This document shows positions 1 to 32,300 of a DNA stretch of 64,000 nucleotides, one piece after another. The DNA is from a virus (Duplodnaviria > Caudoviricetes). The notes beneath the pieces are model-generated. The model was not told the DNA's origin. It saw only the letters and a list, made by a program, of their open reading frames with translations, and did no database searches. A program made the position numbers and the translations under genes. Location: the IMG/VR virus record IMGVR_UViG_2974707348_000001, positions 32,001 through 96,000 of that record; one strand, given 5' to 3'. Position 1 is the first letter of the stretch. Each line of letters begins with the position of its first letter.

Positions 1-298
1 GGCAAACATTACTACCGAAACACGTAACGCATCATTTGAAGAAATCCTTGAAACAATCAGTGACCGACAACAAATAGTTATTGACTACTTGGAAGCATTT
101 GACGAACCTTTATCTGCGAGTGATATTGCGTATGGTCTATATATTAACGGACTTGTTCCAACACCTGAACGCAACTCAGTACACCCTCGATTAACAGAAT
201 TGACAAAAATGGGAATTGTACGTGTAGTCGGTAAAGAAAAAGACCAAGTTACAAATCGAAAAGTTGCGGTCTATGAATTGGTAAAGGAAGCTCGATAA
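1..298 (+). CDS. Winged-helix DNA-binding-like protein (5' end at or just before the window edge)
   Basis: Frame open from base 2; 'SASDIA...SVHPRLTELTKMGIV' wHTH-like pattern. Confidence 0.55.
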   Translation, partial: ANITTETRNASFEEILETISDRQQIVIDYLEAFDEPLSASDIAYGLYINGLVPTPERNSVHPRLTELTKMGIVRVVGKEKDQVTNRKVAVYELVKEAR

Positions 299-531
299 TG
301 AAAAAACTTAATGCAAATCAAACAATTCCAACAAACATTGTAAAATACTTAAACGGAGTCAATCATAATGAGTATGAGAGTGTAGTTGATGCATTCATTG
401 AATCATACGATGACTGGACATTACCTGATGAACTTAATGACTTCTGCAAAGACATTAAGAACTTTCACTTATGTGTAATATACTTGCTAGATAGCGAAAG
501 GTCATTACATATGTTTGAGAATGGAGAATAA
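298..531 (+). CDS. Hypothetical protein
   Basis: ORF coupled to upstream stop, AAGGA RBS. Confidence 0.65.
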   Translation: MKKLNANQTIPTNIVKYLNGVNHNEYESVVDAFIESYDDWTLPDELNDFCKDIKNFHLCVIYLLDSERSLHMFENGE

Positions 532-532
532 T

Positions 533-715
533 ATGTATCCTAAATTTATTGTAGTGGAAGTATATCAACATGAAATCAAAAAGTCTTACTGGAAGCTAAA
601 AATTCTTGAAGGCAAAAGTAAAGTGTGGGAAGATTTCACACACTTTAGATATAATAACTGGATGGATGCCAATTATTATTTACAAACATCAAAAGAAATT
701 AGAGGTTTAAAATGA
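533..715 (+). CDS. Hypothetical protein
   Basis: GGAG RBS before ATG 533. Confidence 0.6.
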   Translation: MYPKFIVVEVYQHEIKKSYWKLKILEGKSKVWEDFTHFRYNNWMDANYYLQTSKEIRGLK

Positions 716-855
716 AAACAAGTACAGAAGTTTTAACAACATTAGTATTCTTCATTATATTATTTGCGATGAAGATGATTGCAGGATTTGAATACGCAGT
801 ACTTTTTGGTTTAGCAGTTGCCATTGTTAAAGTAATTAAGCATGGTAATGGATAA
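712..855 (+). CDS. Small membrane protein (47 aa)
   Basis: GAGG RBS; hydrophobic MKTSTEVLTTLVFFIILFAM...; not in ORF track. Confidence 0.55.
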   Translation: MKTSTEVLTTLVFFIILFAMKMIAGFEYAVLFGLAVAIVKVIKHGNG

Positions 856-1060
856 GAATGAATAACAAACACATCTCTGATTTTTAACCCCTCAGAATGC
901 GTCAGATTCAATTCTAAGCATCTTTTCGACAAATTTGTCCAAATATACGCTGATGAGCGTGTGTATTACTATGCGGTCTTCTCAGAGGGTATTAAAAAAG
1001 AGAGACGAGTAAGAAAGATATAAAATAAGAATTTTATATACGGTTTATGGAGCTTATCGC

Positions 1061-1089
1061 TTGACAATTAGAAAGAAATAGATTATAAT
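1061..1089 (+). promoter_or_regulatory. sigmaA promoter
   Basis: TTGACA-17-TATAAT. Confidence 0.8.
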
Positions 1090-1113
1090 AGGGTATAAAA
1101 TAAGGAGTGGAAA

Positions 1114-1272
1114 ATGAGATATGCTTACAGAGTAACAGACGGAGCGCTTGTTATAGCTTGGGAAGTAACCAATAGCATGGACGAGCTAATAAAAGTAAAA
1201 AACCATGCTGAAAATGTAAGAGGTTATAAGTTTGAAGCATGGGAACTAGAATTTAAGGAAATTGAAGTATGA
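1114..1272 (+). CDS. Hypothetical protein (52 aa)
   Basis: AAGGAG RBS after promoter. Confidence 0.6.
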   Translation: MRYAYRVTDGALVIAWEVTNSMDELIKVKNHAENVRGYKFEAWELEFKEIEV

Positions 1273-1442
1273 AAAAAGTAAAATTTGAATTTAGTGACGG
1301 TTACCAAATACCCGTAACAGAAGTTTTTGAATTTGAAGACGAAGCGACAGAAGAGGAAATTGAAAAAGAGTTTCGTGAGTGGTTTTTTAACGAACTTGAT
1401 ATAGCTGGCATAGGAGGAAATTTTGAGGAGATAGAGTTGTGA
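1269..1442 (+). CDS. Small acidic protein (57 aa), paralog of 36888-37055
   Basis: MKKVKFEF...EVFEFEDEATEEEIEKEFREWF shares a pattern with 36888-37055. Confidence 0.6.
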   Translation: MKKVKFEFSDGYQIPVTEVFEFEDEATEEEIEKEFREWFFNELDIAGIGGNFEEIEL

Positions 1443-1846: not shown

Positions 1847-2682
1847 TTGAATTAAATAAGATTTATAATGAGGACTGTTTAGAAGGAATGAAGCGGATAC
1901 CTGACGGTAGTATTGATATGATTTTATGTGATTTGCCATACGGAACGACCGCTTGCACATGGGACGAAATTATTCCTTTCAAACCCTTATGGGAGCAGTA
2001 TGAAAGAGTTATTAAAGATAACGGTGCGATAGTTCTCACAGCTAGTCAACCATTTACGAGCAAGCTAGTTAGTAGTAATATCAAATGGTTTAAGCATGAA
2101 TGGATATGGGAAAAACAACGTGCATCAAATTTTATGAGAGCTAATCATGAACCTTTAAAATATCATGAAAATATACTAGTATTTTCAAAGGGGTCACTGA
2201 ACATCAACCCACAAAGGTACAAAGTATTGGAAATAGACGAAATTATGAACATGACTAAAAAACAAATGGAAGGAATGATGAAATCAAAAGATTATGATAG
2301 GTTTGGAAAAGTCGATAGGAGAAAAACAGTCAAAGACCCAGACGAAAATAAAGAATATCTTGGTTCAGAAATTAAGAGAGTAAGAAACGCAGATGACGGT
2401 TTTAGAAACCCAAAAAGTGTACTTAAAATAAATAATAAACTGCATGGTAATATACATCCAACACAAAAACCTGTTCACTTATTTGAATACCTAATTAGGA
2501 CTTATACAAATAAAGGCGACACCGTCCTAGATAATTGCATAGGTTCAGGTACAACGGCAATTGCGTGCTTAAATACTGAACGAAATTTTATTGGATTTGA
2601 ATTAGACAAAGAATACTTTGAAGGTGCACAAGATAGAGTTGAAGAAAGAAAAAGTCAAATGAGTTTATTTGACGAGGTCTAA
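1843..2682 (+). CDS. Orphan N6-A/N4-C DNA methyltransferase (beta class)
   Basis: DLPY catalytic motif N-terminal, HPTQKP, and CIGSGTT SAM-binding motif C-terminal. Confidence 0.92.
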   Translation: MIELNKIYNEDCLEGMKRIPDGSIDMILCDLPYGTTACTWDEIIPFKPLWEQYERVIKDNGAIVLTASQPFTSKLVSSNIKWFKHEWIWEKQRASNFMRANHEPLKYHENILVFSKGSLNINPQRYKVLEIDEIMNMTKKQMEGMMKSKDYDRFGKVDRRKTVKDPDENKEYLGSEIKRVRNADDGFRNPKSVLKINNKLHGNIHPTQKPVHLFEYLIRTYTNKGDTVLDNCIGSGTTAIACLNTERNFIGFELDKEYFEGAQDRVEERKSQMSLFDEV

Positions 2683-8508: not shown

Positions 8509-8581
8509 GGTTCTATAGCTTAGATGGTAAAGCCCTCTGCCCATAACAGAGTTAACGCAGGTTCAAGCCCTGCTAGAACCA
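8509..8581 (+). tRNA. tRNA-Met/Ile2 (CAT)
   Basis: Cloverleaf GGTTCTA/TAGAACC, anticodon arm CTCTG-CCCATAA-CAGAG, T loop TTCAAGC. Confidence 0.85.
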
Positions 8582-8629
8582 TTCCCAAAAGGGAAAATAG
8601 ACAGATAGATAGAAAGAGAGGTACTAACC

Positions 8630-8860
8630 ATGATTTTAAAATATGGAGTACATAACGGTAAAGGAGAAACAGTTGTTAATATCGTAGACAACATCACAAG
8701 TGTAGAGGAGGTTGAAGGGAGTAATGCCCCCATCTTCCACCATGAAAGAGGAGATAAACCTCGGACATATTTCGGCAATCTCAAAGAGAATGAATATATT
8801 ATCTTTATGTATTTGATGAACGATGATTTTAAAACAATTAAAATTTACAAGAGGGATTAA
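8630..8860 (+). CDS. Hypothetical protein
   Basis: GAGG RBS. Confidence 0.65.
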   Translation: MILKYGVHNGKGETVVNIVDNITSVEEVEGSNAPIFHHERGDKPRTYFGNLKENEYIIFMYLMNDDFKTIKIYKRD

Positions 8861-8862
8861 AC

Positions 8863-9231
8863 ATGAAACGTATAAAAACACAGACTATATCATTTGATAT
8901 GAATGAAGTGAAAGCATTGACAGGTTTTACTTTAAAAAACTCATGGGGGAACTATGTTCTTGAACATGAAAAATATGGAGTTATCCATGACGTCGTTGAA
9001 GGTGAAGATGGAGAATCTTGGACAAATGGTCTGTTTAATTGCCACATGACTGAGTTAGAAGGTGCCCTAAGACATTATGTTCATCAAAATTTTAGTCTTG
9101 ACTATTTCGATATCGTACAGAACGGTCGATTTGAATATGATACTGTTGGGCATACTGTTCAATTCCATTCTGAAAATGAAGTTACAGTATATTTTATTCT
9201 TGAGGATGAAAAATATTGGGAGGTATCTTAA
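8863..9231 (+). CDS. Hypothetical protein
   Basis: GAGGG RBS. Confidence 0.7.
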   Translation: MKRIKTQTISFDMNEVKALTGFTLKNSWGNYVLEHEKYGVIHDVVEGEDGESWTNGLFNCHMTELEGALRHYVHQNFSLDYFDIVQNGRFEYDTVGHTVQFHSENEVTVYFILEDEKYWEVS

Positions 9232-9279
9232 TTTACTTTTTATTTTATTGCTTTTAAATATAATATGTAAGGAGAAAAT

Positions 9280-9474
9280 ATGGATACAACAACTGCATTA
9301 AAAATAACAGCAACAGCTGTAATTGCGACACTCTTTGAGTATGGATGGTATAAGAGTGTCGAGTGGATTTCTGAATGGAATTATACATGTGGAGTGATAT
9401 GGTTATTAGTGACATTTGCGATACAATTATTTTTAGTTCTTAGATTTACTGGTGATTTTCTTGATTTATTTTAA
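9280..9474 (+). CDS. Small membrane protein
   Basis: AAGGAG RBS, two hydrophobic segments. Confidence 0.65.
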   Translation: MDTTTALKITATAVIATLFEYGWYKSVEWISEWNYTCGVIWLLVTFAIQLFLVLRFTGDFLDLF

Positions 9475-9483
9475 AGTTTATGC

Positions 9484-9512
9484 TTGACAAACATTAAAAG
9501 ATATGGTATAAT
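9484..9512 (+). promoter_or_regulatory. sigmaA promoter
   Basis: TTGACA-17-TATAAT with TG extension. Confidence 0.85.
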
Positions 9513-9537
9513 ATTTATATAACGCAAGGAGAGAAAC

Positions 9538-9963
9538 ATGGAAGAGAAATATATCGAATATCAAACAATGGTAGAAGAAATCATTCTAGGTCGTCGTATT
9601 GTTGTTATTGTTCCAGACAATATGCAAGATTATTCTAGGTTAAATAAAAAGTTAATTAACGATGGAGTTCATTATGAAAATCTATGGCTTGACTTACATA
9701 TGCCAAAAGACAGAATTAACATAATTAAATTAAGTACCTCCAATGGTCGTGAAAAACTTAAGCTTAAACCATTAACATTCTTAGTTGTTACAGACCCTTA
9801 TACTATGGAAGCTCTTGAAGTATATGCTGGTAAGAGTGATATTCTATATGTCGGTATGGATGGAAAAGGTAATTTATTAGATGTAACAGATAATTTAGAG
9901 TATATTTACGACAAATTCTTTCAGCCATTTCAATACTTTGAAGAAGTTCGAGGAGATTTGTAA
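9538..9963 (+). CDS. Hypothetical protein
   Basis: AAGGAG RBS. Confidence 0.7.
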   Translation: MEEKYIEYQTMVEEIILGRRIVVIVPDNMQDYSRLNKKLINDGVHYENLWLDLHMPKDRINIIKLSTSNGREKLKLKPLTFLVVTDPYTMEALEVYAGKSDILYVGMDGKGNLLDVTDNLEYIYDKFFQPFQYFEEVRGDL

Positions 9964-9997
9964 GATTAAATAATTTAAAAAAAATTCAACTTTATAC

Positions 9998-10026
9998 TTG
10001 ACATTATATCAAAATTATGGTATAAT
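9998..10026 (+). promoter_or_regulatory. sigmaA promoter
   Basis: TTGACA-17-TATAAT with TG extension. Confidence 0.85.
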
Positions 10027-10058
10027 ATTAATATAGTCAAGTGAGAGAGGTTGATTGA

Positions 10059-10658
10059 ATGAAAGAAATTGATTCAAAAGAGTTCTTTCCTATAAAAAGA
10101 TATGAAGGTATTTATGAAATCAATACTAACGGAGATATTCGTTCAGTAGATAGAATAATAACAACTAAAGGAAGCAATGGAAGGGGCTCTTACACTTCTC
10201 ATAAAAAGGGAGTTCCAATGAAGAGTTTTCAAAATGGTAGTGGTTATCTTCAAATTAGATTAAGTGTAAATGGTAAATGTAGAATGGAATATGTACATTG
10301 TCTTGTATATGATACTTTCATTGGTATCGAAGATAAGAAAAATGATATAGACCACTTAGACCATAACAAATTAAATTGTTCATTGAATAATTTAGAGGAA
10401 ATAACCCATAAAGAAAATATGAGAAGAATGCGTAAATTCTATGGTATAGAAGCTAAACCCAAAGAAAAGAAAAGCCGAAGAACTTATACATATGATGAAA
10501 TGAAGGAAGCTCTTGAAAGACTTAAAGCTGAACCAATGTCTAAGGTCTGTAAAGACTATGGAATTTCTGATAAAGGTTTATCAAAAAGACTTAAGAGTGT
10601 AGGTCTTCCATATCAAATGAAGGAAATAAATAAATACTTTAATAACAACTTCTTCTAG
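10059..10658 (+). CDS. Free-standing NUMOD4-HNH homing endonuclease
   Basis: YEGIYEINTNGDIRS (NUMOD4), VHCLV..F, IDHLDHNKLNCSLNNLE (HNH). Confidence 0.85.
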   Translation: MKEIDSKEFFPIKRYEGIYEINTNGDIRSVDRIITTKGSNGRGSYTSHKKGVPMKSFQNGSGYLQIRLSVNGKCRMEYVHCLVYDTFIGIEDKKNDIDHLDHNKLNCSLNNLEEITHKENMRRMRKFYGIEAKPKEKKSRRTYTYDEMKEALERLKAEPMSKVCKDYGISDKGLSKRLKSVGLPYQMKEINKYFNNNFF

Positions 10659-10667
10659 TTGTTATCT

Positions 10668-10740
10668 GCTCGGTTGGTGAAGCTGGATATCATGCAAAAT
10701 TTCTAATTTTGTGTCAAGGGTTCAAATCCCTTACTGAGTA
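10668..10740 (+). tRNA. tRNA-Arg (TCT)
   Basis: GCTCGGT/ACTGAGT acceptor, CAAAA-TTTCTAA-TTTTG, AAGGG-TTCAAAT-CCCTT. Confidence 0.85.
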
Positions 10741-10871
10741 TATCAAGTCAATCTTGATTGATTTCTTTATTAGATTAAATGAAGTGGTGGAGGTACAGAT
10801 GAATCTGTAACGTACACATGGGTTGGGGGTACGGTAAGTAGTGTAGCTTATCGCTCGACCATTTTTATTAA

Positions 10872-11217
10872 GGGGATGTAAAGGTTTCGACAGACTATGG
10901 CAATCTCAAATCACATTCCGACAGGGATAGTCGTAAAAACCAAACTAAATATAATTGCAAATACTCAATTAGCTGTAGCCTAAGCTACAAAAAAGTTTAA
11001 GTAATTAAACAGCTAGTAACTGAGACATCGGTAGGTCACTAGTACAAAACAGATGTGTGATGGATTCTGATAAGTCACGATTAACAATCAGAACAGAGTT
11101 AGTAGATAGTTGTTTATTCAAGAAACTAACAATGTGTATCCAATGAATAAACTATGAATGTAAGAAAGTTTTAAGATATGTATAGTTTGGACGCGGATTC
11201 GATTTCCGCCATCTCCA
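10872..11217 (+). ncRNA. ssrA: tmRNA, tag ANTQLAVA* at 10957-10983
   Basis: 5' GGGGATGTAAAGGTTTCGAC, 3' GCGGA-TTCGATT-TCCGC-CATCTCC-A with G3.U70; resume context ATAATT-GCA. Confidence 0.9.
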
Positions 11218-11259
11218 TCATGTTTTTAAAACATATTTAAAAAACATATTACTTTATAC

Positions 11260-11288
11260 TTGACAAACATTAAAAAATGTGTTATAAT
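11260..11288 (+). promoter_or_regulatory. sigmaA promoter for RNA island
   Basis: TTGACA-17-TATAAT. Confidence 0.85.
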
Positions 11289-11465
11289 AGTATATAGTGA
11301 TTATTAAATGAAATAGAGTGCGAGGTCAGTCATATCATTATGATAGTGGACTGAATGACTAGAGTAAAAAGACTAACAATCTTCTAGTCTTAGAATAGGC
11401 AAGTTCCGTTCAATGTCGCCCAAGATTTCGGTTGGAGAAACTGAGAAGACAGCTTTATTTCTAAA

Positions 11466-11538
11466 GGTTTGTTGGTGTAGTGGTTATCACGCTTGCCTGT
11501 CACGCAAGAGAACACGGGTTCGAATCCCGTACGAGCCG
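11466..11538 (+). tRNA. tRNA-Asp (GTC)
   Basis: CTTGC-CTGTCAC-GCAAG anticodon arm, canonical T arm. Confidence 0.93.
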
Positions 11539-11715
11539 TAGATAAGATAGTAATACGAGTCTTATCGCCCTCTAGGGTTCACTGTAATGCCTAGGGTAAA
11601 AGGCTTTAGCCTAGTCCAGTATGGTAGTTTTAGTAACTTTATAACAAAGTTCTAAAGTCATCGAGGATATTGGACTAATGTAACACTACTAAATGTTAGA
11701 AAGTTAGTAGTCAAA

Positions 11716-11777
11716 GGTTAACGAGTGGTAGCAGTAGTTATTAAATGTTCAGCTGATGAAGTGGACAGCCAAGTATA
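11716..11777 (+). repeat. 62-nt repeat, copy 1 (copy 2 at 13882-13943)
   Basis: 59/62 identical by direct comparison. Confidence 0.9.
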
Positions 11778-11905
11778 GGGTGCTTAGGATAATAATAAAG
11801 ATAGTCCTAATTGTTAAATGAGTAAAACTATCCAAGTCGACGGAAACTAACAGCCCTTTGTATATTATATGTCAGTGAACCTTTAACGTAGCTGGCATAT
11901 AATAA

Positions 11906-11977
11906 CAGGATATAGTGTTAATGGTAGCATGCGTGTTTTGGGAACATGTAGTGTTGGTTCGAGTCCAGCTATCCTGA
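11906..11977 (+). tRNA. tRNA-Pro (TGG)
   Basis: CAGGATA/TATCCTG, CGTGT-TTTGGGA-ACATG. Confidence 0.9.
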
Positions 11978-12183
11978 TGAGTGGTGTATAGTCCACACGT
12001 AAAGTGTCTAATCGGTGTACAACGTATGGCACAACTATACAAGCATGAGAGTATGATAAATACCTGACGGGTGTAGCTACTATTTGTTATAACTACTTAT
12101 GTTAGTTACCAGAAACCTAGTGTATTAAATGTCACAGGGTAAAGGATAGGAACAAAGACCTATCGAATAAGTGACAGCTGGTT

Positions 12184-12240
12184 AGAGTAATAGGTTGCAA
12201 CAGGTCACGACTGTGGAGGGTCCGAGTCCCTTCTGCTCTG
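12184..12240 (+). ncRNA. Degenerate mini-tRNA-like element
   Basis: AGAGTA/TGCTCT acceptor, GAGGG-TCCGAGT-CCCTT T arm, no D stem. Confidence 0.45.
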
Positions 12241-12300
12241 TTGAGGGAGCATAAACCTGGCGAAAAGTTATGTGGAGGAATAAACCTGGCGAAAAATTCA

Positions 12301-12358
12301 TCCGATATTATGGTTAAATAAAGGACGCTTTATGTTGGTTCGATTCCAACTGTCGGAT
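12301..12358 (+). ncRNA. Anticodon-less mini-tRNA
   Basis: TCCGATA/TGTCGGA acceptor, GG linker, ATAAAG-GACG-CTTTAT, GTTGG-TTCGATT-CCAAC. Confidence 0.7.
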
Positions 12359-12418
12359 ATAGGTGTTGCTTATTCACCGTATAATAAGCTAGAAAAGTAA
12401 GTATAGTAGGTAAATAAA

Positions 12419-12934
12419 ATGACAAATCCAATTCTAATCAAAGAATTAAGTTTTCAACTTAAAGAATATCGAGATATCTTAACAGATATTATTAAGTTAT
12501 CTGCACGTTCTGATGACCAAGCAAATTCAGCTAAAAATATATTATTTCAAATATTTTATCATACAGAATGGATGATTCAAATGTATGCTGGTAATTATGA
12601 AGAAAAACCATACGGAGACTCCGAAGATTTAAGTTTTAAAGAAGGAAAAGTTTCTCAAAATATTGTAAAATATATTATGGATAACTTCAAAGGTATTCCA
12701 CTTACAGAAGAAGGTTTGAGTAAGTTGACTAAGAAAGAAAAAGAATTTTTAAATCCTTTCGAAGACCTATTATCTATCACCCATAGAATGATAAGAGCTG
12801 TTGTAGATTATTCAGATAGTCATTCTGAAAGTAAAACTATAGACAGAACAGATGCACAACCTATGAGTATTTTATATTTCATTGATTCACTGAAAGAAAG
12901 AACTGCTTATGCTATGGAAAAAGAAGTATACTAA
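12419..12934 (+). CDS. Hypothetical protein inside the RNA island
   Basis: 171-aa ORF, weak RBS. Confidence 0.7.
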   Translation: MTNPILIKELSFQLKEYRDILTDIIKLSARSDDQANSAKNILFQIFYHTEWMIQMYAGNYEEKPYGDSEDLSFKEGKVSQNIVKYIMDNFKGIPLTEEGLSKLTKKEKEFLNPFEDLLSITHRMIRAVVDYSDSHSESKTIDRTDAQPMSILYFIDSLKERTAYAMEKEVY

Positions 12935-13073
12935 TTTAGGTGACTCACTACCTATACCCCAAATGTGAAGCTTAAAGGGGGTTAATAACACTATTCCCTA
13001 GGTTTGAATCCTTGAAAATTATCGGTAAGCGATGATTGCAAAATTCATAGTGGATGGAGCAAGAGTGTTTCAT

Positions 13074-13147
13074 TGGTTGGTAGCTCAGTTGGTAGTAGCA
13101 CTAGTCTCCAAAACTAGGTGTCGTGAGTTCGAATCTCACCCAATCAG
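13074..13147 (+). tRNA. tRNA-Trp (CCA)
   Basis: CTAGT-CTCCAAA-ACTAG, canonical arms. Confidence 0.92.
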
Positions 13148-13212
13148 TATGTAAGAGCTGTGCACAGTTACTTACAGAGTTAGGTCAAAGGATTAATTAA
13201 CCTTAACCAAAC

Positions 13213-13266
13213 GGCTTGTTTTTGGTAATAACATGCGTTAACTGAGTTCGATTCTCAGGCAAGTCT
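13213..13266 (+). ncRNA. Anticodon-less mini-tRNA
   Basis: GGCTTGT/GCAAGTC acceptor, TTTTGGTAA linker, TAAC-ATGC-GTTA, CTGAG-TTCGATT-CTCAG. Confidence 0.7.
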
Positions 13267-13322
13267 TATCAGTACCTTATCCGCTTAAGTAGAAATACAG
13301 CGCATTAGATAAGGGCGATTGA

Positions 13323-13394
13323 ATCCGTTTAGTGTAGTGGTAAGCACATCAGATTCCAAACCTGATAACGTGGGTTCGATTCCTACAATGGATG
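13323..13394 (+). tRNA. Second tRNA-Trp (CCA)
   Basis: ATCCGTT/AATGGAT, TCAGA-TTCCAAA-CCTGA (31-39 mismatch). Confidence 0.85.
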
Positions 13395-13607
13395 TTATAT
13401 GTGTGCAAGTCTCTCATAAAGGGAGATGGTGTTAAATGCGGAAGATGTCCGACAGCCATATAAAAACAACACAGCCAAAATACGACTCTATATAGATATT
13501 TTGGTTTGCAATCTTGGTGGTAATCGTTATAGAGACGGTAAGTCCGAAAATGATAGGGAAGGTGTTGTATGCCTATCTACGAGAGTGTTCAAGAAGCTCT
13601 CAATTAT

Positions 13608-13679
13608 ACAGGGTGGGTGGCAAGGAGTCGCATTAGTTTTATAGGCTAAATAAGAGCGGTTCGATTCCGTTACCCCGAA
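13608..13679 (+). tRNA. Degenerate tRNA-Ile (TAT)
   Basis: TTAGT-TTTATAG-GCTAA, AGCGG-TTCGATT-CCGTT; acceptor has mismatches. Confidence 0.5.
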
Positions 13680-13881
13680 TATTACTGAAAAGTAATTAAA
13701 AGGAACTTTGAGTAGTTCGCCTTTATGGAAACGGGTTGTTAGTGTATACCGCAAAAGAAAACTATCCGTTACTCTTTACGATATAAGAAGCTTAAAATCA
13801 TGTTTGGTCTTTGCATATCATTCCTAAAGACTAAGGTGTACTGATTGACGGTGCTTAAATGTTATAGAGTTGACAGCCAAT

Positions 13882-13943: not shown

Positions 13944-14052
13944 CATTGGTCTTGATAGATAATGTGAAGGTTATATTAGCTAGTCTATGATATAACTCAA
14001 AAAACTACTTGCACAGTACTCGATTTGTAGTTTACCAATACACAATTTGGTT

Positions 14053-14129
14053 TCCCACTTCGTTTAAACATTGGAAGAAGACTGCCTATTCGAGAACAGG
14101 CAACCTCGGTTCGATTCCGAGGGTGGGGA
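14053..14129 (+). ncRNA. tRNA-like RNA with aberrant 10-nt anticodon loop
   Basis: TCCCACT/GGTGGGG, TGCCT-ATTCGAGAAC-AGGCA, CTCGG-TTCGATT-CCGAG. Confidence 0.6.
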
Positions 14130-14157
14130 TTTAATTTAAAATATTATTACTCATCTC

Positions 14158-14186
14158 TTGACAAACTCATTTGATTATGGTATAAT
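14158..14186 (+). promoter_or_regulatory. sigmaA promoter
   Basis: TTGACA-17-TATAAT with TG extension. Confidence 0.85.
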
Positions 14187-14224
14187 AATATATGTAAGTT
14201 AAAAAAACGTAAGGAGAACAAAAT

Positions 14225-14338
14225 ATGGGATGTTTAATTCCGATTGTATTAATTGTATTTTTAATCAATCCAGCTATGGGTTTAATGACAGCAATTATTT
14301 TATTGATTGTATTGGCACTAGCAAGTCTTAAAAAATAA
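14225..14338 (+). CDS. 37-aa hydrophobic membrane peptide
   Basis: AAGGAG RBS; MGCLIPIVLIVFLINPAMGLMTAIILLIVLALASLKK; not in ORF track. Confidence 0.7.
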   Translation: MGCLIPIVLIVFLINPAMGLMTAIILLIVLALASLKK

Positions 14339-14351
14339 GGAGAAAACACAA

Positions 14352-15008
14352 ATGACACAAAGTAAAACACTCACAGTACAAGAAGCACTTAATGAACTTA
14401 AAGTTCTTGACAAACGTATTGAACGTAAACTTGGAGACACTAAATATGTAGGTGTTGTTCAAGAAGACAAACTTGTTTATCCTGCATCATCAAAAGGTGA
14501 TAAAGATAAATTCATTTCAGAGGCAAAATCTAGTATTGATTCATTACTTGATTTGATTGCTTATCGTCATGCTTTGAAAGCTGGTGTATTGCGTTCTAAT
14601 GCGTTAACAGAAGTTGTAATTGGAGACAAAACAATGACAGTTGCAGAAGCAATTGATTATAAAACTTCAATCCAAAGTGAAAAAGATTTGGTTCAAACTC
14701 TTGTTAATGATTTGACTCAAGCGACAACTAAGGCGACACGTATTAATGAGGATATTGATAAGACTCTTGAAAAGAAACAAAATAGCTTGTTAAGCTCAGA
14801 CAAAGACGATAAAAATCCTGATATTATTAAATTCTTGAAAGAACAAGCTGAGAGCGAAAAAGCAACAGTTCTTGAATTGGAAGTTGGTAAAGCTCTTGTA
14901 AGTGATTACACCAAAGCTAAACTTGACTCAATTGAACAATTTGAACAAACAGTTGATTTCAAATTAACTGCATCAAATGTTGCAACAGAAATTACCGTTG
15001 AGTGGTAA
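14352..15008 (+). CDS. Coiled-coil protein (DIP1984/DUF6847-like by recall) upstream of a large ncRNA
   Basis: AAGGAG RBS; TVQEALNELKVL...MTVAEAI...SNVATEI; helical heptads. Confidence 0.75.
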   Translation: MTQSKTLTVQEALNELKVLDKRIERKLGDTKYVGVVQEDKLVYPASSKGDKDKFISEAKSSIDSLLDLIAYRHALKAGVLRSNALTEVVIGDKTMTVAEAIDYKTSIQSEKDLVQTLVNDLTQATTKATRINEDIDKTLEKKQNSLLSSDKDDKNPDIIKFLKEQAESEKATVLELEVGKALVSDYTKAKLDSIEQFEQTVDFKLTASNVATEITVEW

Positions 15009-15023
15009 TAATTAAGTTATAAT

Positions 15024-15399
15024 CATGTTATGACGAACAATCTAAAGTATAGATTTCCAGATAGTTCTGTTTTTCAGAGGTTCTTATAACTGGAAATAAA
15101 TAATAAATATGACGAACTTCTGATACTATAATATAATATAAAAATATGATGAATCTCAAAAAGAGAGGTTATGTATTCAAGACGGTAAGGATGAGTCCTT
15201 ATTCGTAGGAATAGATAAAAACTACTTCATAGATTATAGTTCAAAGCTCATGCTTTATAGCTTAGAGTTTATATCTTATATTGGATAATGAATCCAGTTA
15301 TAGATTAAGTTTGAAGATTTAAGTTTTCTTCAAAATCCTAGAGTTACGTTTTGTGACTTTCTATATCAGTTTGGTTGTACGCTAGGCTGTCATAACATG
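15024..15399 (+). ncRNA. Putative ~375-nt structured ncRNA with heptamer array
   Basis: 11-bp closing helix CATGTTATGAC/GTCATAACATG, internal hairpins, crossing pairings, no long ORF. Confidence 0.7.
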
Positions 15400-15401
15400 G
15401 T

Positions 15402-15438
15402 AAAATAAGGACTACTTCAGTAGTTCTTATTTTTTTTA
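15402..15438 (+). terminator. Intrinsic terminator
   Basis: AATAAGGACTAC-TTCA-GTAGTTCTTATT followed by T-run. Confidence 0.85.
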
Positions 15439-15448
15439 TACTTTTCTC

Positions 15449-15477
15449 TTGACAAAGCAAAATAGTTATGGTATAAT
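15449..15477 (+). promoter_or_regulatory. sigmaA promoter
   Basis: TTGACA-17-TATAAT with TG extension. Confidence 0.85.
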
Positions 15478-15511
15478 ATATTATAACCGATTGAAAGGAA
15501 TGGTATTAACA

Positions 15512-17780
15512 TTGACAGAAAAAATTAGAAAGCTGAGTAATCGTGACCAAGCTCGTGAGAAGATTGCGGTATGGTACGGTTCAGCAGATAACTACCAACA
15601 TGGACTAAAAGAACTCCTAGCCAATGCAACAGATGAAATTATTAATAATTTTGAAGATGGGACTATTACGGTCAAGCTGAGTGCAGATGGCTCAACAGTA
15701 ACTGTTACAGATACTGGTCGAGGTATTCCAATTTCAGGCGAAACTGACGGAATCCCCAACTATGAATTGTTGTTTTTGACTCTCTTTGCAGGAACTAAGT
15801 ATGGAGATAGTGGTGTAACAAATGGAACTTATACAGGTTCAAATGGTGTAGGTACTACAGTTCTTAACTATACGTCAGTTCTTTTCGAAGTAACATCAAT
15901 TATTAAGGGAATTAAATACCATATTAAATTCACTAATGGTGGAGAAGTTACCGAAGAGTTAACAGAAGAAAAAACAAATGATACTGATGGAACAACTGTG
16001 ACGTTTTCACTTGACCCAGCAGTTTATACAAAGACAGTCTTTAAAGACGAAGATGTCCGTGAGATTGCACACCGATATGCTGTTAGTTCAAATAAGATTA
16101 CAGTTGACTATATTCATGGAGAGACTGAATTAAAATACCATTATACAGACTTGAAAGAATATTATTCAGAACTTACAGGTGCTGTCAATACAAGTGGGAT
16201 TGTCTTTGGTGATTTGGTTGAGTATCAAGATACAATTACAAGTAATCAACATGATGTTTTCACGTCTCATGAAGAATTAACTTCTCTTTCGATTGCATTA
16301 TCAACCTCAACAACACCAACACAAGAATCTTACTTGAACTTAAACTACTTACCTAATGGTGGCAAGATTAACGAAGGAATTATTAATGGTATTAAACTTT
16401 ACGTTAATAAATACTGTCGTGCAAATAATCTGTTTCCTAAGAAAGTCAATTCTTTTTCAGATTCAGATATTACAGAGTCATTTAGCTTTGTAGCTGTTAT
16501 GTTTTCAAACAATGTTGAGTTTGCAAATCAAACTAAATTCTCTACAAACAAAGAACTCTATAAAGAAGTTGCCAAGAGACGTGTTACACAAATCTTAGAA
16601 GTCACAGAAATTGAAGACCCTAAAAACTTCAAAGATATTATTAATCACCTACTTCTTGTTCAAAAAGAAAATACAGTCAATGCTAAACACAAAGAGAAAC
16701 TTAAAAAGAAATTGACTGAAAAGGTTGATTCAATGTCAAATCGTATTGATAAACTTGTTGATTCTCGTATTCATGGGGAAGAAGCAGAGCTTTATCTTGC
16801 GGAGGGAGACTCGGCTCATGGTTCAGTAGTTTTAGCTCGTGATAGTAGGTTCCAAGCAAGTATGCCTATGGGTGGTAAATTCCTTAACGTTGAAAAAGCA
16901 ATGAATATTGAAGACATTGTTAATAATGAAACAGTCATGAATGTAATTAAGGCTTTGGGGTGTGGGATTGATTTAGGTAAGAAACAAAAAGACTTACCTA
17001 AATTCGACATTACTAAGCTACGCTATGGGAAAATTATCTGTGCGTCAGATGAAGACCCAGATGGAGCGCAAATTCAATGTTTGATTATTACACTGTTCTA
17101 TAAGTTAATGCCAGAAATTATTCATACTGGTCGCCTATACTTGGCTCAAACACCTTTGTTCGAAATTAAGCTCAAAGATGATTCAGTTCTGTATGCTTAT
17201 ACAGATAAGGGACGTGATGAAATTCTAAAAGAACAAGGAAATAAAGTAGTTCAATATTCACGTTCCAAAGGGTAAGAGGAAATCCAAGCCCTTAACCACC
17301 TTTTCCAGTTATCACTGGGGTAATCATTATGATTGCTAACGAGGTAGCCTAAGTCTTTAAGATATGGTAATCTCGTGGGAAATTTTAAGTGTTTATTTTA
17401 TAAATTTGATTAGAAATTGGAAATCAATAATAGTTTAAATAAAATAAACACTTAAATAAACCTGTATCGACTATCGGCTTTGTCGCTGAGTACGCTAACT
17501 ATTGATACGTTAGTGGAAATGGGTGGATAACCATTTTTGGTTATTAAGAAATAGTCAGTGCCTGATGAAAAGAAGGATAATACACGTAGGAGAATTAGAT
17601 GCACATGTTATGGCTGAGACAGCAATGAATCCTGAGACTCGTCATTTGACACGTGTTACAATTGAAGATGCCAAAGAAGCTGAACAAGCTATTGTTGATT
17701 GGATGGGTAATGATGTTAGCAATCGTAAAGTATTCATTTCAAGAAACCTTAACAAATTTATTAAAGAAGGACTAGAATAA
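15512..17780 (+). CDS. gyrB: Type II topoisomerase subunit B (GyrB/ParE-like); exons 15512-17273 + 17587-17780 (start may be ATG 15500)
   Basis: GHKL motifs DTGRGIP and GSNGVG; TOPRIM EGDSA and DEDPDG; splicing restores KGLGEL. Confidence 0.9.
17274..17586 (+). mobile_element. Group I intron (313 nt, no ORF)
   Basis: P1 AAGGGT/GCCCTT with U.G, P7 GACTA/TAGTC, terminal G. Confidence 0.88.
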
Positions 17781-29388: not shown

Positions 29389-32300
29389 TTGACAGTCACA
29401 AAGATTGAAACAAAAAAATCAGCAACACCAGAGTATTTTATGCTCAACAACCAACTAAATATCATTAAAGATGGTAAAATTCAGTTGAACGCAGACAGAG
29501 AAGCTGTCCATAGCTATTTCATTGATTACGTAAACCCACATACAGTCTATTTTGGAGACTTGCGTGAGAAGCTCGACTATTTAGTGAAACACAAGTATAT
29601 CAAAGGCGAAGTACTTGATAAATATACTTTCAAATTTATTAAAAAATTATTTAAAACTCTATATGACAAGAAGTTTAGATTCACAACTTTCATGGGTGCG
29701 TATAAGTTTTATACACAATATGCTATGCACACAACAGATGGAAAATCAATTCTTGAACGATATGAAGACCGTATTGCTTTTAATGCCTTAGTTATGGCTG
29801 ATGGCGATGAGCAATTGGCTCTCAACATTGCAAATGAAATGATTTCACAAACCTATCAACCTGCAACACCAACATTTTCTAATGCTGGTAAATTGCGTGG
29901 GGGTAATGCTGTATCATGTTTTCTCTTGAATATTGAAGATAATATGACTTCTATCGGACGCTCAGTAAACTCAGTTCTTCAATTGTCTAAAATGGGTGGT
30001 GGAGTTGGAATCAACTTAACTGATATCCGTCCATCAGGAGACCCTATCAAGGGTATTGAGAATATGGCTGATGGAGTTGTTCCAATCATGAAACTTTATG
30101 AAGATTCATTTTCATATGCCAATCAACTGGGGACAAGAAGCGGTGCAGGAGTGACTTATCTCAATGTATTCCATAAAGATATTGTTAAATTCCTATCTAC
30201 TAAAAAAGAAAATGCTGACGAAAAAGTTCGTGTTAAAACACTTTCGTTGGGTGTTGTCGTTCCTGATAAATTCTATGAACTCATTGCTAAAGGTGAATCA
30301 ATGTATTTGTTCAGCCCTTATGATATCTATAATGAATACGGAAAACTAATGTCTGAAATCAACATCACAGAAATGTATGATGAGTTAGTTGAAAACAAAA
30401 ATATCAAGAAAGATAAAATCTTTGCTCGTGACCTTGAAGAAGAAATGTCTAAACTTATTCAAGAGTCAGGATATCCATACATCATTAATATTGATACAGC
30501 AAACCAAGAAAATGCTATTGATGGTGTAATTAAAATGAGTAATTTGTGTTGATAGTAGCACCTTTATAGAGAAATCTATATCGAAAATCCTGTGAAACGG
30601 AGAAACTCTAATTTTTAAATTAGACAATTCCGTGCTAAATAAAATATAGTTAAAAATAAAGGAAATAATAATAACTATATTTTTAAATGCCTAACGACTA
30701 GAGAAATCAGATGAGATAAGTAATTATCTCTGAATAAGAAATTATCGTAAGCCTTAAACAAGGTTGAAGCGCAGGAAACCTAAGAATCCAAAACTGGATT
30801 TATGGTTATGAAATAGTCTGTTCTATATAGTGATATATAGATGTTTATATCATAATGTACTGGATATAAACTGCTAAAGAGTAGTGACCTTTAGTGAACA
30901 AAAAGTCAGAAATCCTTCAAGTACAATCTCCATCAGAGTTGAACCCAGACCAAACTTATAAGACTATTGGTACTGACGTATCATGTAATCTTGGTTCAAC
31001 TAATATTGCACATCTTATGGAATCACCAGACTTTGGAAAATCTGTTAGAACAGCATTTCGTGCATTAACCTATGTTGCAGATAGCTCTAATATTGAAGAA
31101 GTTCCTACTGTCAAGAATGCCAACGACAAGTATCACTCAGTAGGGTTGAAAATCGCCTAGCTCTACTATAAAATTTTGCTATATGCTGGAAACTCTTAAA
31201 GATATTGATACTTGAATCTTACCAATTCGCAAAAGTAAAAATTCAATATATAAATAGACAATCAGCAGGGAAGTCGTGGTTGACCCCTCAGAGACTACAC
31301 GCAGAACAACTTAACCAAAAAAAACATTTAACTATAATAGAAAGGAGAATATATGGAAGAATTATGGTCTAATATTGATGGTTTTAACGACAAATATCTT
31401 ATAAGTTCTTTAGGTAGAATGAAAATTCAAGCCAATACATCTAAAAGAATGATTAATGGTGTTGTATTCGATTATCATCAAAAAGAAATGATAAAATCTC
31501 TAAAAATAAACGAAGATAAAAATGAATATGTAAAAGTTCGTCTAATTCAGAAACTTAATAATAAATCAAAAACAGTTTCTGTACATAGATTAGTTGCAAA
31601 AGCATTTATTCCTAATCCTCATAATCTACCAGAAGTAAATCATATAAATGGTAAGAAAAGTGACAATAGAGTTGAGAATCTTGAATGGTGCGATAAAAGC
31701 TATAACATGAAACATGCAATAGAATATCTTGGTTTCAAAGCTGACACCTCCAATTTACAAGACAAAAGACCTGTTTATCAAATAGATAAAGACACTGATG
31801 AGATAATTAAATCTTTTGATAGTATCACTCAAGCCACCAGAGAAACAGGGGTTTTGCACATATCTGGTGTTTGTTTGGGTAACAGACGTACAGCTGGTGG
31901 ATTTAAATGGAAATATAAAGAATAACAACTAATGGTTAAGTTGAAGATATAGTCCAAACCCTAGACAAATATCTCGAAAGAGAGGGTATTTTCATTGTAG
32001 GCGCAATGGGGCTACATGGATTCCTTGCTAAAAACGGAATCTTCTATGGTTCTCCTGAATCAATTGAGTTCACAGGTATGTACTTCCAACTTCTGAACTA
32101 TTGGACTTTGTTTGAAAGCAATCAAATTGCTATCGAACGCAACAAAGCTTTCTATAACTTTGATAAATCAGAATATGCAAATGGTAAATATTTCAAACGC
32201 TATTTACCACGTGTTAAATTCAAAAATAATCTTTCTGATACAGTTCAAGAATTATTTAAAGACATTGATATCCCAACTGCACAAGACTGGGCTGACCTAC

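Follow-up and report, generated by a model that had tools for sequence, protein, structure and literature searches.

A two-pseudoknot RNA behind the gene for a ~210-residue protein in phages and bacteria: a putative ribonucleoprotein module

A transcription unit with a structured non-coding stretch

The window, that is, the whole 64,000-nt stretch of DNA analysed here (positions 32,001 to 96,000 of IMG/VR record IMGVR_UViG_2974707348_000001), derives from a Lactococcus phage of the 949 group. An earlier note, made from its letters alone, had described in it a complete unit of promoter, 37-residue membrane peptide, 218-residue protein, structured non-coding region and terminator (Table 1). The promoter, which fits the consensus at all 12 positions and has a TG extension, the 218-residue ORF and the terminator, a stem followed by a T run, are all present; further, the terminator stem covaries inside the 949 group (ACUAC/GUAGU to ACAGC/GUGGU). 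The 37-residue peptide does lie in the same transcription unit, but it is confined to the 949 group and is not a member of the conserved module discussed below: the annotations of PMBT69, FFH1, Bacillus Z3 and Vibrio JSF12 include nothing that corresponds to it, and in T5 and FFH1 a different 60-aa ORF occupies its place. Upstream within the window lies a tRNA array with a tmRNA, and the promoter that follows the unit at 15449, again with 12/12 consensus positions, drives topoisomerase II genes. As the note had observed, no ORF or tRNA accounts for the non-coding stretch, there being no Rfam family, tRNA or conserved ORF in 15009-15448; its description of the phage as compact does not hold, since the phage record has 123,023 bases.

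Table 1. Coordinates of the features of the unit in the window, with the support for each
Feature	Position	Strand	Support or remark
Sigma-70-type promoter, TTGACA-17-TATAAT with TG extension	14158..14186	+	12/12 consensus; kept in 949-group phages
37-aa hydrophobic peptide ORF	14225..14338	+	phrog_9039 match, E 6e-23
218-aa protein gene, the RNA's partner gene	14352..15008	+	phrog_1491, E 3e-68
Structured RNA, outer end to outer end of P1, 380 nt	15022..15401	+	fold, covariation, model R1
P1 5' arm (AUCAUGUUAUGACG), partner 15388-15401	15022..15035	+	14 bp
P2 5' strand ACAAUC, partner 15373-15378 GGUUGU	15037..15042	+	60/60 cells pair
P3 5' strand GUAUAGA, partner 15360-15366 UCUAUAU	15047..15053	+	98.6% of cells pair
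5' H-type pseudoknot (stems S1 and S2)	15055..15123	+	covariation, family-wide grammar search
S1 of 5' pseudoknot	15055-15060 with 15090-15095	+	supported by relatives
S2 of 5' pseudoknot	15074-15083 with 15114-15123	+	core 15076-15083 with 15114-15121
Variable linker with lineage-specific hairpin UAAGGA/UCCUUA	15124..15228	+	
Heptad array of xAG-N4 repeats (AUAGAUU AUAGUUC AAAGCUC ...)	15229..15330	+	
Small hairpin breaking up the heptad array	15282-15296	+	
3' pseudoknot 5' strand CCUAG, partner 15382-15386	15337..15341	+	held-out covariation
3' hairpin AGUUAC/GUGACU between the 3' pseudoknot strands	15342..15358	+	93.3% of cells pair
3' pseudoknot 3' strand CUAGG	15382..15386	+	held-out covariation
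P1 3' arm (UGUCAUAACAUGGU), partner 15022-15035	15388..15401	+	covariation
Intrinsic terminator, end of unit	15402..15441	+	15402-15433, then T run

Three candidate identities for the non-coding stretch were rejected: a retron-like RNA, as no reverse transcriptase lies nearby; a TnpB omega RNA, as the transposase of phage 949 lies upstream of the unit and does not adjoin the RNA; and a decayed gene, as conserved ORFs are absent, indels of 5 nt occur and the changes in pairs are compensatory.

Covariation and architecture of the RNA

The folding of the stretch beats that of 100 out of 100 shuffles on both strands (z = -4.4). The individual pairings were assessed in an alignment of 10 sequences, with slid partners and 500 shuffles as controls: 96.1% of 540 cells pair, against 31-43% with slid partners, and double changes occur at 8 pairs, a number that none of the 500 shuffles reached (1.3 in shuffles). 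Relatives uphold most of the helices first read from the single sequence. The 11-bp closing helix is real and grows to 14 bp (P1), with four compensatory double changes relative to phage PMBT69; ACAATC/GGTTGT is P2, in which U/C changes face G; ATTTCCAG/CTGGAAAT constitutes stem S1 of a 5' pseudoknot; GAGTTAC/GTGACTT is the 3' hairpin, with one compensatory pair and a hairpin at the equivalent place throughout the family alignment; and CCTAG/CTAGG forms the 3' pseudoknot. The remaining proposals are present in the sequence but find no such support, namely CTGATA/TATCAG, whose first strand overlaps the 3' strand of S2 and has a G to T change in AM4, LW81 and L008; TTTGAAGA/TCTTCAAA, which falls inside the heptad array and has a G-C position mismatched in 4 of the 10 sequences; and TAAGGA/TCCTTA, which belongs to a lineage-specific insert absent from phage 949 and PMBT69. 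Stem S2 has two compensatory pairs (phage 949: AAAGAUUC/GAAUCUUU), with its outermost pairs broken in 5 of the 10 sequences, and P3, assessed in the 949 group and PMBT69, has one.

The family-wide comparisons extend this picture. Pairing of the 3' pseudoknot is circular in the seed set; in sequences kept out of model building, all five pairs form in 35 of 36 distinct rows with 12 different pair sets, and in a second held-out set in 65 of 66 with 16 pair sets, while the held-out cells pair at a rate of 99.6%, compared with 27-50% for slid partners. P1 changes its sequence in nearly every lineage and keeps its complementarity: in 44 of 48 held-out loci the locus's own 3' arm is complementary at no fewer than 12 of 13 bases, against 132 of 2246 foreign arms, and in a further held-out set it reaches this level in 44 of 74, against 3.9% of foreign arms. 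P2 has at least six contiguous pairs in 39 of 52 held-out cases (286 of 2652 with permuted partners), and a grammar search for the 5' pseudoknot scores at least 28 in 28 of 62 (12 of 186 shuffles). P1 and the 3' pseudoknot together contain 160 G-U among 1013 standard pairs; as these would be A-C mismatches on the opposite strand, the RNA is read from the + strand.

In this architecture, P1 is stacked on P2, a conserved AAAAU precedes the CCUAG strand of the 3' pseudoknot, and its CUAGG strand is followed by an invariant C and then the P1 3' arm. Across the family the RNA measures ~270-440 nt, with a P1 of 12-21 bp and a heptad stretch of ~100-120 nt. The heptads have the consensus a-a-A-G-n-U-y, with ~9 AG-marked repeats per array in space for ~14-17 heptads. 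In autocorrelation, the best lag is 7 nt for 54 of the 64 viral sequences and for 71 of the 74 from bacteria, with values of 0.45, 0.43 and 0.39 at lags 7, 14 and 21 against ~0.30 in shuffles and a stronger signal in bacteria; the AG-to-AG spacing likewise peaks at 7, 14 and 21. Tandem Repeats Finder (TRF) did not detect the heptads in the window because the copies are too degenerate for it. Phage 949 has other sequence in place of the linker, and PMBT69 has lost it; in three loci (L036, L039 and L069) a tRNA lies inside the RNA, and elsewhere tRNAs adjoin its 3' end. In the Salmonella phage bobsandoy, the match to the RNA region is divided into two parts, underneath which a homing endonuclease is annotated, and the linker there possibly holds the endonuclease gene.

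The partner protein and its linkage to the RNA

The protein aligns by its residues 4-218 with positions 2-211 of the 211 in the phrog_1491 profile (E 3.1e-68), and its family, which includes T5 ORF080, comprises 3349 clusters at 50% identity (E<=1e-3). The protein of the module is ~210 aa long and soluble-looking. RefSeq phage records call the protein a 'tail fiber protein', a label that phrog_1491 also carries; the gene context argues against a structural tail role and for a mislabel, the gene being set among tRNA and early genes (behind an early promoter in T5), replication genes in the window and housekeeping genes in bacteria. We found no Pfam family in scans of 8 homologs (to E<=1) and 17 alignment members (to E<=0.01), both of which included the window protein, no NCBIfam family in 8 homologs, no PADLOC family, and no recognisable RNA-binding or other domain. 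The likeness to DIP1984/DUF6847 put forward in the earlier note finds no support in these scans: PF20935 is matched neither by the 8 homologs, T5 ORF080 among them, to E<=1 nor by the 17 members to E<=0.01, and the NCBIfam DIP1984 model is unmatched by 8 homologs. The nearest named cluster in the ESM Atlas is DUF6847 (score 0.86), which we treat as a lead only, and a sequence-profile search of the PDB gave weak matches only, to 8bjw_A (E 0.006), to 3kdq_A, which we take to be DIP1984 (E 0.17), and to designed helical bundles. PADLOC similarly returned scattered weak matches among the 17 members, none common to them, including a match of AbiQ to the window protein (E 0.008, 1 of 17 members) at chance level.

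An exact 16-nt motif scan of IMG/VR, which recovered 8 stretches (seven 949-group phages and locus L009, where the match is due to chance and lies inside a coding region), was too narrow and was replaced by loci anchored on the protein gene. Three sets of loci were collected separately, viral (IMG/VR and GenBank), metagenomic and bacterial-genome. Downstream of the gene, the 3' pseudoknot and the closing helix occur jointly in 75 of 85 viral loci, whereas the reverse complements and the shuffles each give 9 of 85; the viral loci show 26 different sets of pseudoknot pairs and 51 different 9-bp helices. Of the 68 metagenomic loci with room for the RNA, 50 have a match of the sequence-only model R1 behind the gene, on the + strand; among the 18 with no confident match, 11 have weak R1 matches at the expected place and 7 have none there at E<=0.1. 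In bacterial genomes, the RNA stands directly behind the gene on the same strand in 76 of 80 loci. Collecting homologs of the protein and examining what lies downstream, as the earlier note had proposed, uncovers the structured RNA behind the gene in each of the three sets. The distance from the stop codon to the start of P1 is 2-90 nt (median 20). Whole phage records hold exactly one RNA match, at the syntenic site behind the gene, in 6 of 6, and the family-wide R1 matches the window at 15325-15396 (E 2.2e-10) as its sole match in the 123-kb genome; loci L120 and L141 have an additional RNA copy that is not accompanied by another protein gene. These observations establish the RNA as a family, how it folds, the strand it is read from, its occurrence as one copy per genome and its link with the protein gene in both phages and bacterial chromosomes.

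The carriers include hundreds of phages, T5 among them (large phages of the T5-like, Vibrio, Bacillus, Klebsiella, Pseudomonas and Lactococcus 949-group kinds), and many bacteria, with Bacillus, Lysinibacillus and Clostridium genomes and many Bacillota represented. tRNAs are found in 35 of 57 viral loci, always on the same strand; in bacterial loci a tRNA is nearby in 3 of 20 and absent in 17 of 20. The neighbours are otherwise diverse: topoisomerase genes here, in T5 the region of sleB, a lysozyme-like gene annotated as a spore cortex-lytic enzyme, the portal region in Bacillus Z3, and elsewhere tRNAs, permeases and a response regulator. Because the neighbours differ and some are convergent, the RNA is unlikely to regulate downstream genes.

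No Rfam family describes the RNA, as the scan suggested by the earlier note makes clear. None of the 4227 models matches at its gathering score in the RNA of the window or of four further loci (L001 and L096-L098); at E<=10, window positions 14900-15550 give only four junk matches (miRNA, plastid UTR and flpD), L096 and L098 give none at E<=5, and 10 bacterial loci give none at E<=1. The covariance models of GOLLD, ROOL, OLE, raiA, tmRNA and RNase P RNA likewise leave the RNA unmatched. In the accessible portions of the literature we found neither the RNA nor the protein nor their pairing already described; the 10,006 candidates of PMC10690425 may include part of the RNA; the accessible portions of the phiL47 genome paper mention neither orf109 nor the intergenic region (PMC3888941).

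Among RNA libraries, 23 runs contain 0.10-0.26 of the sampled words and none contains half. Four runs were compared as contigs, a form in which transcript ends and strand are not visible. In run X1, taken as RNA only by guess, the contigs over 14706-15285 have a depth of 465 and those over 15256-15312 depths of 2850 and 616, against 23-31 in the flanks, so that contigs over 14706-15312 are 20-120x deeper than their surroundings; X3, X12 and X14 have no such contrast over the RNA. The X1 depth is thus a weak hint of a transcript.

Interpretation and comparison with known systems

The cognate protein-RNA pair proposed in the earlier note is borne out as regards a conserved, covarying, pseudoknotted RNA and its genetic tie to the gene (75/85, 50/68 and 76/80 loci); the complex itself is putative. 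On balance, we lean towards reading 14352-15401 as a copy of a conserved two-part module, the ~210-aa protein gene followed directly by the structured RNA on the same strand, which would form a putative ribonucleoprotein particle acting in trans. The RNA would arise as the 3' portion of the transcript that encodes the protein and, where tRNAs adjoin it, could be released by the tRNA-processing enzymes. Several copies of the protein are predicted to bind next to one another along the xAG-N4 repeats, which lie between one pseudoknot and the other, yielding a defined particle that would act in trans. Comparable reading of NAG triplets is known from HutP and TRAP; the 'RNA-templated oligomer' of the note fits the heptad array as a putative binding platform. 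The housing of the module in phage tRNA arrays points to a role in translation or tRNA biology, or in defence against attacks on these. A more specific version, which we hold tentatively and with rather less than even confidence, is a new ribonucleoprotein in which a dozen or so copies of an RNA-binding protein of new fold sit on the heptads, clamped by the long helix, and act on translation or the tRNA supply, or shield them; in phages its source would be the transcript of the tRNA array. Alternatively, the heptads could serve as sites for a host protein or for contacts between RNAs.

The alternative that fares best, though we think it unlikely, is an RNA-only machine of the GOLLD/ROOL sort, which folds and perhaps multimerises alone, the protein being merely co-expressed or acting elsewhere. 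The tRNAs inside the linker or at the 3' end recall the setting of those RNAs, and the second RNA copies in two loci have no protein gene of their own. Nevertheless, the gene precedes the RNA in all three sets, including chromosomes with no tRNA nearby and ordinary neighbours, and this constant order is hard to explain except by a functional tie of protein and RNA; moreover, ~100 nt of unpaired xAG-N4 repeats resemble a protein-binding platform rather than a folded core.

Less probable again is an autoregulatory 3' UTR, with the protein governing its own translation or stability through the repeats of its mRNA and no particle having a function apart from this. T4 gp32 autoregulates in a comparable manner on a pseudoknot followed by A/U-rich repeats, and the short distance from stop codon to P1 places the RNA within the mRNA unless it is cut off, as does the order of promoter, ORFs, RNA and terminator. 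Yet an operator behind its gene would be unusual, the two pseudoknots, the 12-21 bp closing helix and the tRNA insertions exceed what an operator needs, and processing at adjoining or interrupting tRNAs would part the RNA from the mRNA.

We regard as improbable a HutP- or TRAP-like attenuator, in which the protein on the xAG repeats would control the terminator at 15402 and hence read-through downstream. The succession of regulator gene, xAG-N4 repeats and terminator does resemble hutP and the hut terminator, hutP lying directly upstream of its own RNA target, and TRAP reads NAG triplets on the trp leader. However, the repeats here are enclosed by P1 and P2 and lie clear of the terminator, the genes that follow have a 12/12 promoter to themselves, downstream genes are unconserved and sometimes convergent (in L230 the full RNA is kept despite a convergent downstream gene), and the HutP family of Pfam is unmatched by the 8 homologs (to E<=1) and the 17 members (to E<=0.01). 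Slightly more improbable still is a type III toxin-antitoxin-like pair or decoy, with the repeat RNA neutralising a neighbouring ribonuclease: a repeat RNA does adjoin a protein gene, the cassette stands alone in phages and bacterial chromosomes, and there is the weak AbiQ match, but this is limited to one of the 17 members, ToxN-like Pfam families are unmatched, and the repeats are 7 nt long and behind the gene, whereas known type III antitoxin repeats are ~35 nt long and in front of the toxin gene. Finally, a DNA-level element, be it an origin of replication or a miniature transposon bounded by terminal inverted repeats, is very unlikely, for although the stretch is A+T-rich, adjoins topoisomerase genes and has flanks with an 11-14 bp inverted repeat, the covariation of the pseudoknot and P2 is intelligible only in a single strand, G-U pairing works on the + strand alone, each genome has one copy at a syntenic site, and 10 related phages display no presence/absence polymorphism.

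If the ribonucleoprotein module is real, T5, a model phage of seventy years' study, carries an unannotated ~350-nt RNA, and the same holds for hundreds of further phages and for many genomes of Bacillus, Lysinibacillus and Clostridium. It unites an RNA with two pseudoknots and a dedicated partner gene with a large protein family that has neither a Pfam nor an NCBIfam model and bears the name of a tail fiber protein in RefSeq. The regular xAG-N4 array would offer a simple system for how proteins measure themselves out along RNA. The RNA would be a third kind of large RNA in phage tRNA islands, beside GOLLD and ROOL, and the first such RNA with an obvious protein handle, which makes its function testable in T5 and E. 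coli.

GOLLD and ROOL are described, in the portions of the source available, as phage RNAs near tRNA islands with no known function or protein partner, GOLLD being conserved in its 3' part and variable in its 5' part, with a linker that sometimes includes a tRNA (bioRxiv 10.1101/2024.12.08.627333). The present RNA is likewise a large structured phage RNA in a tRNA-island setting, with a tRNA inside three of its representatives, but it is smaller, has a heptad array and a specific gene in front, and also occurs in bacterial chromosomes away from tRNAs. In the OLE system, a partner gene adjoins the ole gene, and the likeness of OLE-Oap to our module lies in a large structured RNA of Bacillota with dedicated protein partners, at variance with which we have a soluble-looking protein of no known family, an RNA with no Rfam match, and an occurrence that extends to phages of Gram-negative and Gram-positive hosts. 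OLE RNA has at least six protein partners according to the same partly available source (bioRxiv 10.1101/2024.12.08.627333). HutP, as far as the available text goes, recognises the A and G of XAG motifs with 4-nt spacers, and the hut terminator RNA, with XAG motifs and U4 spacers, lies upstream of the hut degradation genes (PMC2425495). Our RNA shares these xAG motifs with 4-nt spacers, and hence the 7-nt period; in contrast to the 3+3 motifs of hut, its more numerous repeats are enclosed by a closing helix and two pseudoknots, its protein is not a detectable HutP relative, and control of downstream genes is unlikely. CsrB-type sponges and type III antitoxin RNAs (ToxI and antiQ) also bind many protein copies through repeated motifs, though motif, repeat length, gene order and protein family are all unlike those described here. 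GOLLD/ROOL, OLE-Oap and HutP are analogues only, and in sequence and fold the module belongs to none of them.

The unit in lactococcal phages and its fold

The window belongs to a 949-group phage of Lactococcus lactis (record length 123,023 bases): the stretch 14100-15500 has 20 matching records, with 90-97% identity to phages AM1-AM12, WRP3, LW81, phiL47 and 949, and 66% identity to PMBT69. The complete unit described in the earlier note is largely confirmed, as its promoter agrees with the consensus at 12/12 positions, the 37-aa and 218-aa ORFs and the terminator were all found, and the 11-bp inverted repeat said to seal the non-coding stretch is real and grows to a 14-bp helix, P1. Seven tRNAs and a tmRNA form an array upstream of the unit, and downstream are two topoisomerase II genes with a consensus promoter of their own.

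The tmRNA is the phage's own (Rfam 111 bits; tag peptide VKTKLNIIANTQLAVA) and is not mentioned in the available part of the phiL47 genome paper (PMC3888941). Just upstream of the unit's promoter is a tRNA-like 3' end, called neither by ARAGORN nor by Rfam at E<=1, which could represent either a degenerate tRNA or the terminus of a different RNA. Phage 949 alone has an insertion directly ahead of the unit, a 'putative transposase' (ORF91), past which its similarity to the window begins. In one wastewater run, taken by guess to be RNA, contigs over part of the unit were 20-120x deeper than the flanks; three other runs gave no similar depth contrast there.

Features of the RNA unit and its surroundings in the window and in related loci
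Feature	Record	Coordinates	Strand	Details
tRNA array	window	8509-13680		7 tRNAs and tmRNA
tmRNA	window	10872-11220		within tRNA array
tRNA-like 3' end	window	about 14040-14134		T-arm-like GGTTCGATTCC, then GAGGGTGGGGA
Promoter of unit	window	14158		
218-aa protein gene	window	14352-15008	+	
Contigs of raised depth	window	14706-15312		one wastewater run
RNA	window	15022-15401	+	
P1	window	15022-15035/15388-15401		14 bp
P2	window	15037-15042/15373-15378		ACAAUC/GGUUGU
P3	window	15047-15053/15360-15366		GUAUAGA/UCUAUAU
Heptad array	window	15229-15330	+	AUAGAUU AUAGUUC AAAGCUC AUGCUUU AUAGCUU AGAGUUU, continuing
3' pseudoknot	window	15337-15341/15382-15386		
Terminator	window	15402-15433		
Downstream promoter	window	15449		consensus
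ORF91 'putative transposase'	phage 949 (L002)	243-1361		
Skipping-rope RNA (RF02924)	PMBT69 (L001)	377-455		in tRNA array
Skipping-rope RNA	Paenibacillus xylaniclasticus (L218)	2516-2644		R1 match at 2350-2431
Split RNA-region match	bobsandoy, NC_092683.1 (H109)	77152-78132		two pieces
Duplicated RNA and tRNA-Met	metagenome loci L120, L141	about 2200-3300		copies about 520 nt apart

Folding of 15009-15400, in which no Rfam family, tRNA or conserved ORF was found, beats 100/100 shuffles on either strand (z = -4.4). In an alignment of ten related phages the ends of the RNA are conserved and its centre is variable: phage 949 has other sequence there, and PMBT69 has lost it. P1 shows four compensatory double changes in PMBT69, and the long-range helices P2 and P3 stack on it. 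Across the ten phages, 96.1% of 540 cells in the proposed helices pair, against 31-43% with partners slid, and double changes occur at eight pairs, against 1.3 in shuffles, none of the 500 shuffles attaining eight. Three further pairings of the earlier note, CTGATA/TATCAG, TTTGAAGA/TCTTCAAA and the lineage-specific TAAGGA/TCCTTA, are present in the sequence but find no backing in the relatives. The window also has a 5' H-type pseudoknot, in which UUCCAG/CUGGAA is crossed with AGAGGUUC/GAACUUCU. The central domains were analysed with custom scripts, and model building covered a shorter part of the RNA.

A gene-RNA pair in phages, metagenomes and bacteria

The 218-aa protein matches phrog_1491 (E 3e-68), the PHROG family whose T5 member is ORF080, and neither it nor the homologs scanned belong to a Pfam, NCBIfam or PADLOC family. 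Relatives occur in 717 GenBank phage records, chiefly of Salmonella (284), Escherichia (140), Pseudomonas (58), Vibrio (55), Bacillus (33), Klebsiella (32) and Lactococcus (20), and on bacterial genome contigs (167 relatives). A profile search gave 3349 clusters at 50% identity, 1432 of them at E<=1e-30; length is about 202-222 aa throughout among the matches listed (best 150 of the 3349 clusters). Many RefSeq phage records carry the propagated name 'tail fiber protein' for these relatives, which is probably wrong, since the gene lies among tRNA and early genes in phages and beside housekeeping genes in bacteria.

Behind the protein gene in the three distant phages examined first (E. coli T5-like FFH1, Bacillus Z3 and Vibrio JSF12) lie 442-490 nt without an annotated gene, which fold well (z = -6.1, -3.2 and -2.8, respectively), share the window's end motifs (...AAAUC-CNNNN... 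hairpin ...NNNNG-C-UG) and have a long helix that extends back to a point shortly past the stop codon. In T5 this region is annotated with nothing but a predicted promoter, which lies at the far end; the T5-type region is present in 458 records and is mostly unannotated in the 60 sampled. We then defined the 3' architecture as an A-rich context with C plus 4 nt pairing 5/5 with a 5-mer 35-80 nt downstream, and after that 5-mer a C and a 9-nt arm at least 8/9 complementary to the first 110 nt past the stop. This was found at 75 of 85 viral loci (IMG/VR, GenBank and the window), 73 of them with plausible length, versus 9/85 reverse complements and 9/85 shuffles, and it comprises 26 pseudoknot pair sets and 51 different helices; two loci, L073 and L094, were judged spurious and removed.

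To avoid circularity, R1, a model of the 3' domain, was built from sequence without base pairs (57 of 58 non-identical seeds, L085 omitted). Among 80 metagenome loci collected via the protein, R1 matches 51, always on the + strand behind the gene, and it matches 50 of the 68 that offer 420 nt or more for the RNA; unfiltered, it gives weak matches (E<=0.1) at the expected place in 11 of these remaining 18. Among the 80 loci retained from the bacterial relatives, 76 likewise have an R1 match behind the gene, and each of six whole phage records has exactly one match, at that site. The module reaches well beyond lactococcal phages and is not a lactococcal oddity. Genome contigs L211, L259 and L265, assigned to a Bathyarchaeia archaeon and to cyanobacteria (Symploca, Phormidiaceae), carry it too, among tRNAs on the two cyanobacterial ones; they could be phage sequence that was binned together with the host.

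Phage cassettes sit in tRNA arrays, with tRNAs at 35/57 loci, all on the cassette's strand; a common arrangement has one tRNA ending about 50 nt ahead of the gene and another starting 8-15 nt past P1, and at L036, L039 and L069 a tRNA lies within the RNA's variable linker. The metagenome loci L120 and L141 carry a tandem duplication of the RNA with tRNA-Met, the second RNA copy having no protein gene in front. A tRNA lies within 1.5 kb of only 3/20 bacterial loci, and the flanking ORFs of the six scanned encode an MFS transporter, an amino-acid permease, PdaC, a response regulator, DinB and a dehydrogenase, some neighbours being convergent. With bacterial loci mostly free of tRNAs and set among ordinary chromosomal genes, the invariant is the gene-RNA pair, not the tRNAs or a downstream gene.

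Other elements were seen nearby. Skipping-rope RNA, of unknown function, is part of the same tRNA array in PMBT69 and starts 85 nt past the R1 match in P. xylaniclasticus. In the Salmonella phage bobsandoy the RNA-region match is split, spanning 981 nt versus 442, and a homing endonuclease is annotated under the match.

Covariation and the heptad array

The seed alignment A4 was selected on pairing, which makes its 100% pairing figure circular, and held-out counts alone are quotable. In the metagenome alignment, 99.6% of pseudoknot cells pair, versus 27-50% when slid; 35 of 36 distinct non-seed metagenome rows pair 5/5 and one 4/5 (12 pair sets), as do 65 of 66 new distinct bacterial rows at 5/5 (16 pair sets). 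A locus's own 13-nt 3' arm of P1 is at least 12/13 complementary near the stop in 44/48 metagenome loci, versus 132/2246 trials with foreign arms, and in 44/74 bacterial loci, versus 3.9%; in some bacterial-set lineages this arm begins one base later. Six or more contiguous P2 pairs form in 39/52 distinct cases versus 286/2652 with permuted partners, and the 5' H-type pseudoknot is enriched (score of at least 28 in 28/62 versus 12/186 shuffles).

The ~115 nt ahead of the 3' pseudoknot show a strong 7-nt period, with autocorrelation in viral sequences of 0.447, 0.432 and 0.387 at lags 7, 14 and 21, versus about 0.30 in shuffles; lag 7 scores highest in 54/64 viral and 71/74 bacterial sequences. 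The unit, a-a-A-G-n-U-y, is an xAG triplet with four spacer bases, and an array has about nine AG sites. HutP recognises XAG motifs four bases apart, contacting A and G (PMC2425495).

Proposed partnership, alternatives and known systems

That the RNA family is real we regard as practically certain. We observe a widespread + strand RNA, running 5' to 3' through P1/P2, the 5' pseudoknot, a variable linker, the xAG-N4 array, the 3' pseudoknot and again P1, with the protein family gene ahead of it throughout three locus sets, save for second copies in L120 and L141. The earlier note's structured, pseudoknotted RNA tied to a protein stands in the conserved covarying RNA and its gene linkage across these sets, but the DIP1984/DUF6847 label for the protein is not borne out, with two weak leads only. 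A functional tie between RNA and protein is very probable; for direct multimeric binding of the protein to the RNA the balance is about even. The RNA would be a dedicated partner of the protein family, and several protein copies might line the heptads that the two pseudoknots enclose.

Among the alternatives, an RNA-only machine of the GOLLD/ROOL kind is unlikely, and an autoregulatory 3' UTR of the protein gene is distinctly unlikely. An attenuator of downstream genes resembling HutP in action has a slim chance; the 218-aa protein shows no detectable HutP relationship. A pair like type III toxin-antitoxins has a slimmer one, AbiQ matching just 1/17 family members. G-U pairs form 160/1013 of the standard pairs in P1 and the pseudoknot, which places the RNA on the + strand, and the chance of a DNA element is negligible.

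A scan of the window and of loci in phages and bacteria matched the RNA to no Rfam family, in keeping with the novelty first proposed, and the literature covered, supplementary catalogues aside, held no prior description of the RNA, the protein or the pair. OLE resembles the RNA in having a partner gene, and TRAP targets resemble it in their repeats. GOLLD and ROOL are alike in setting (bioRxiv 10.1101/2024.12.08.627333) and HutP targets in repeats (PMC2425495).
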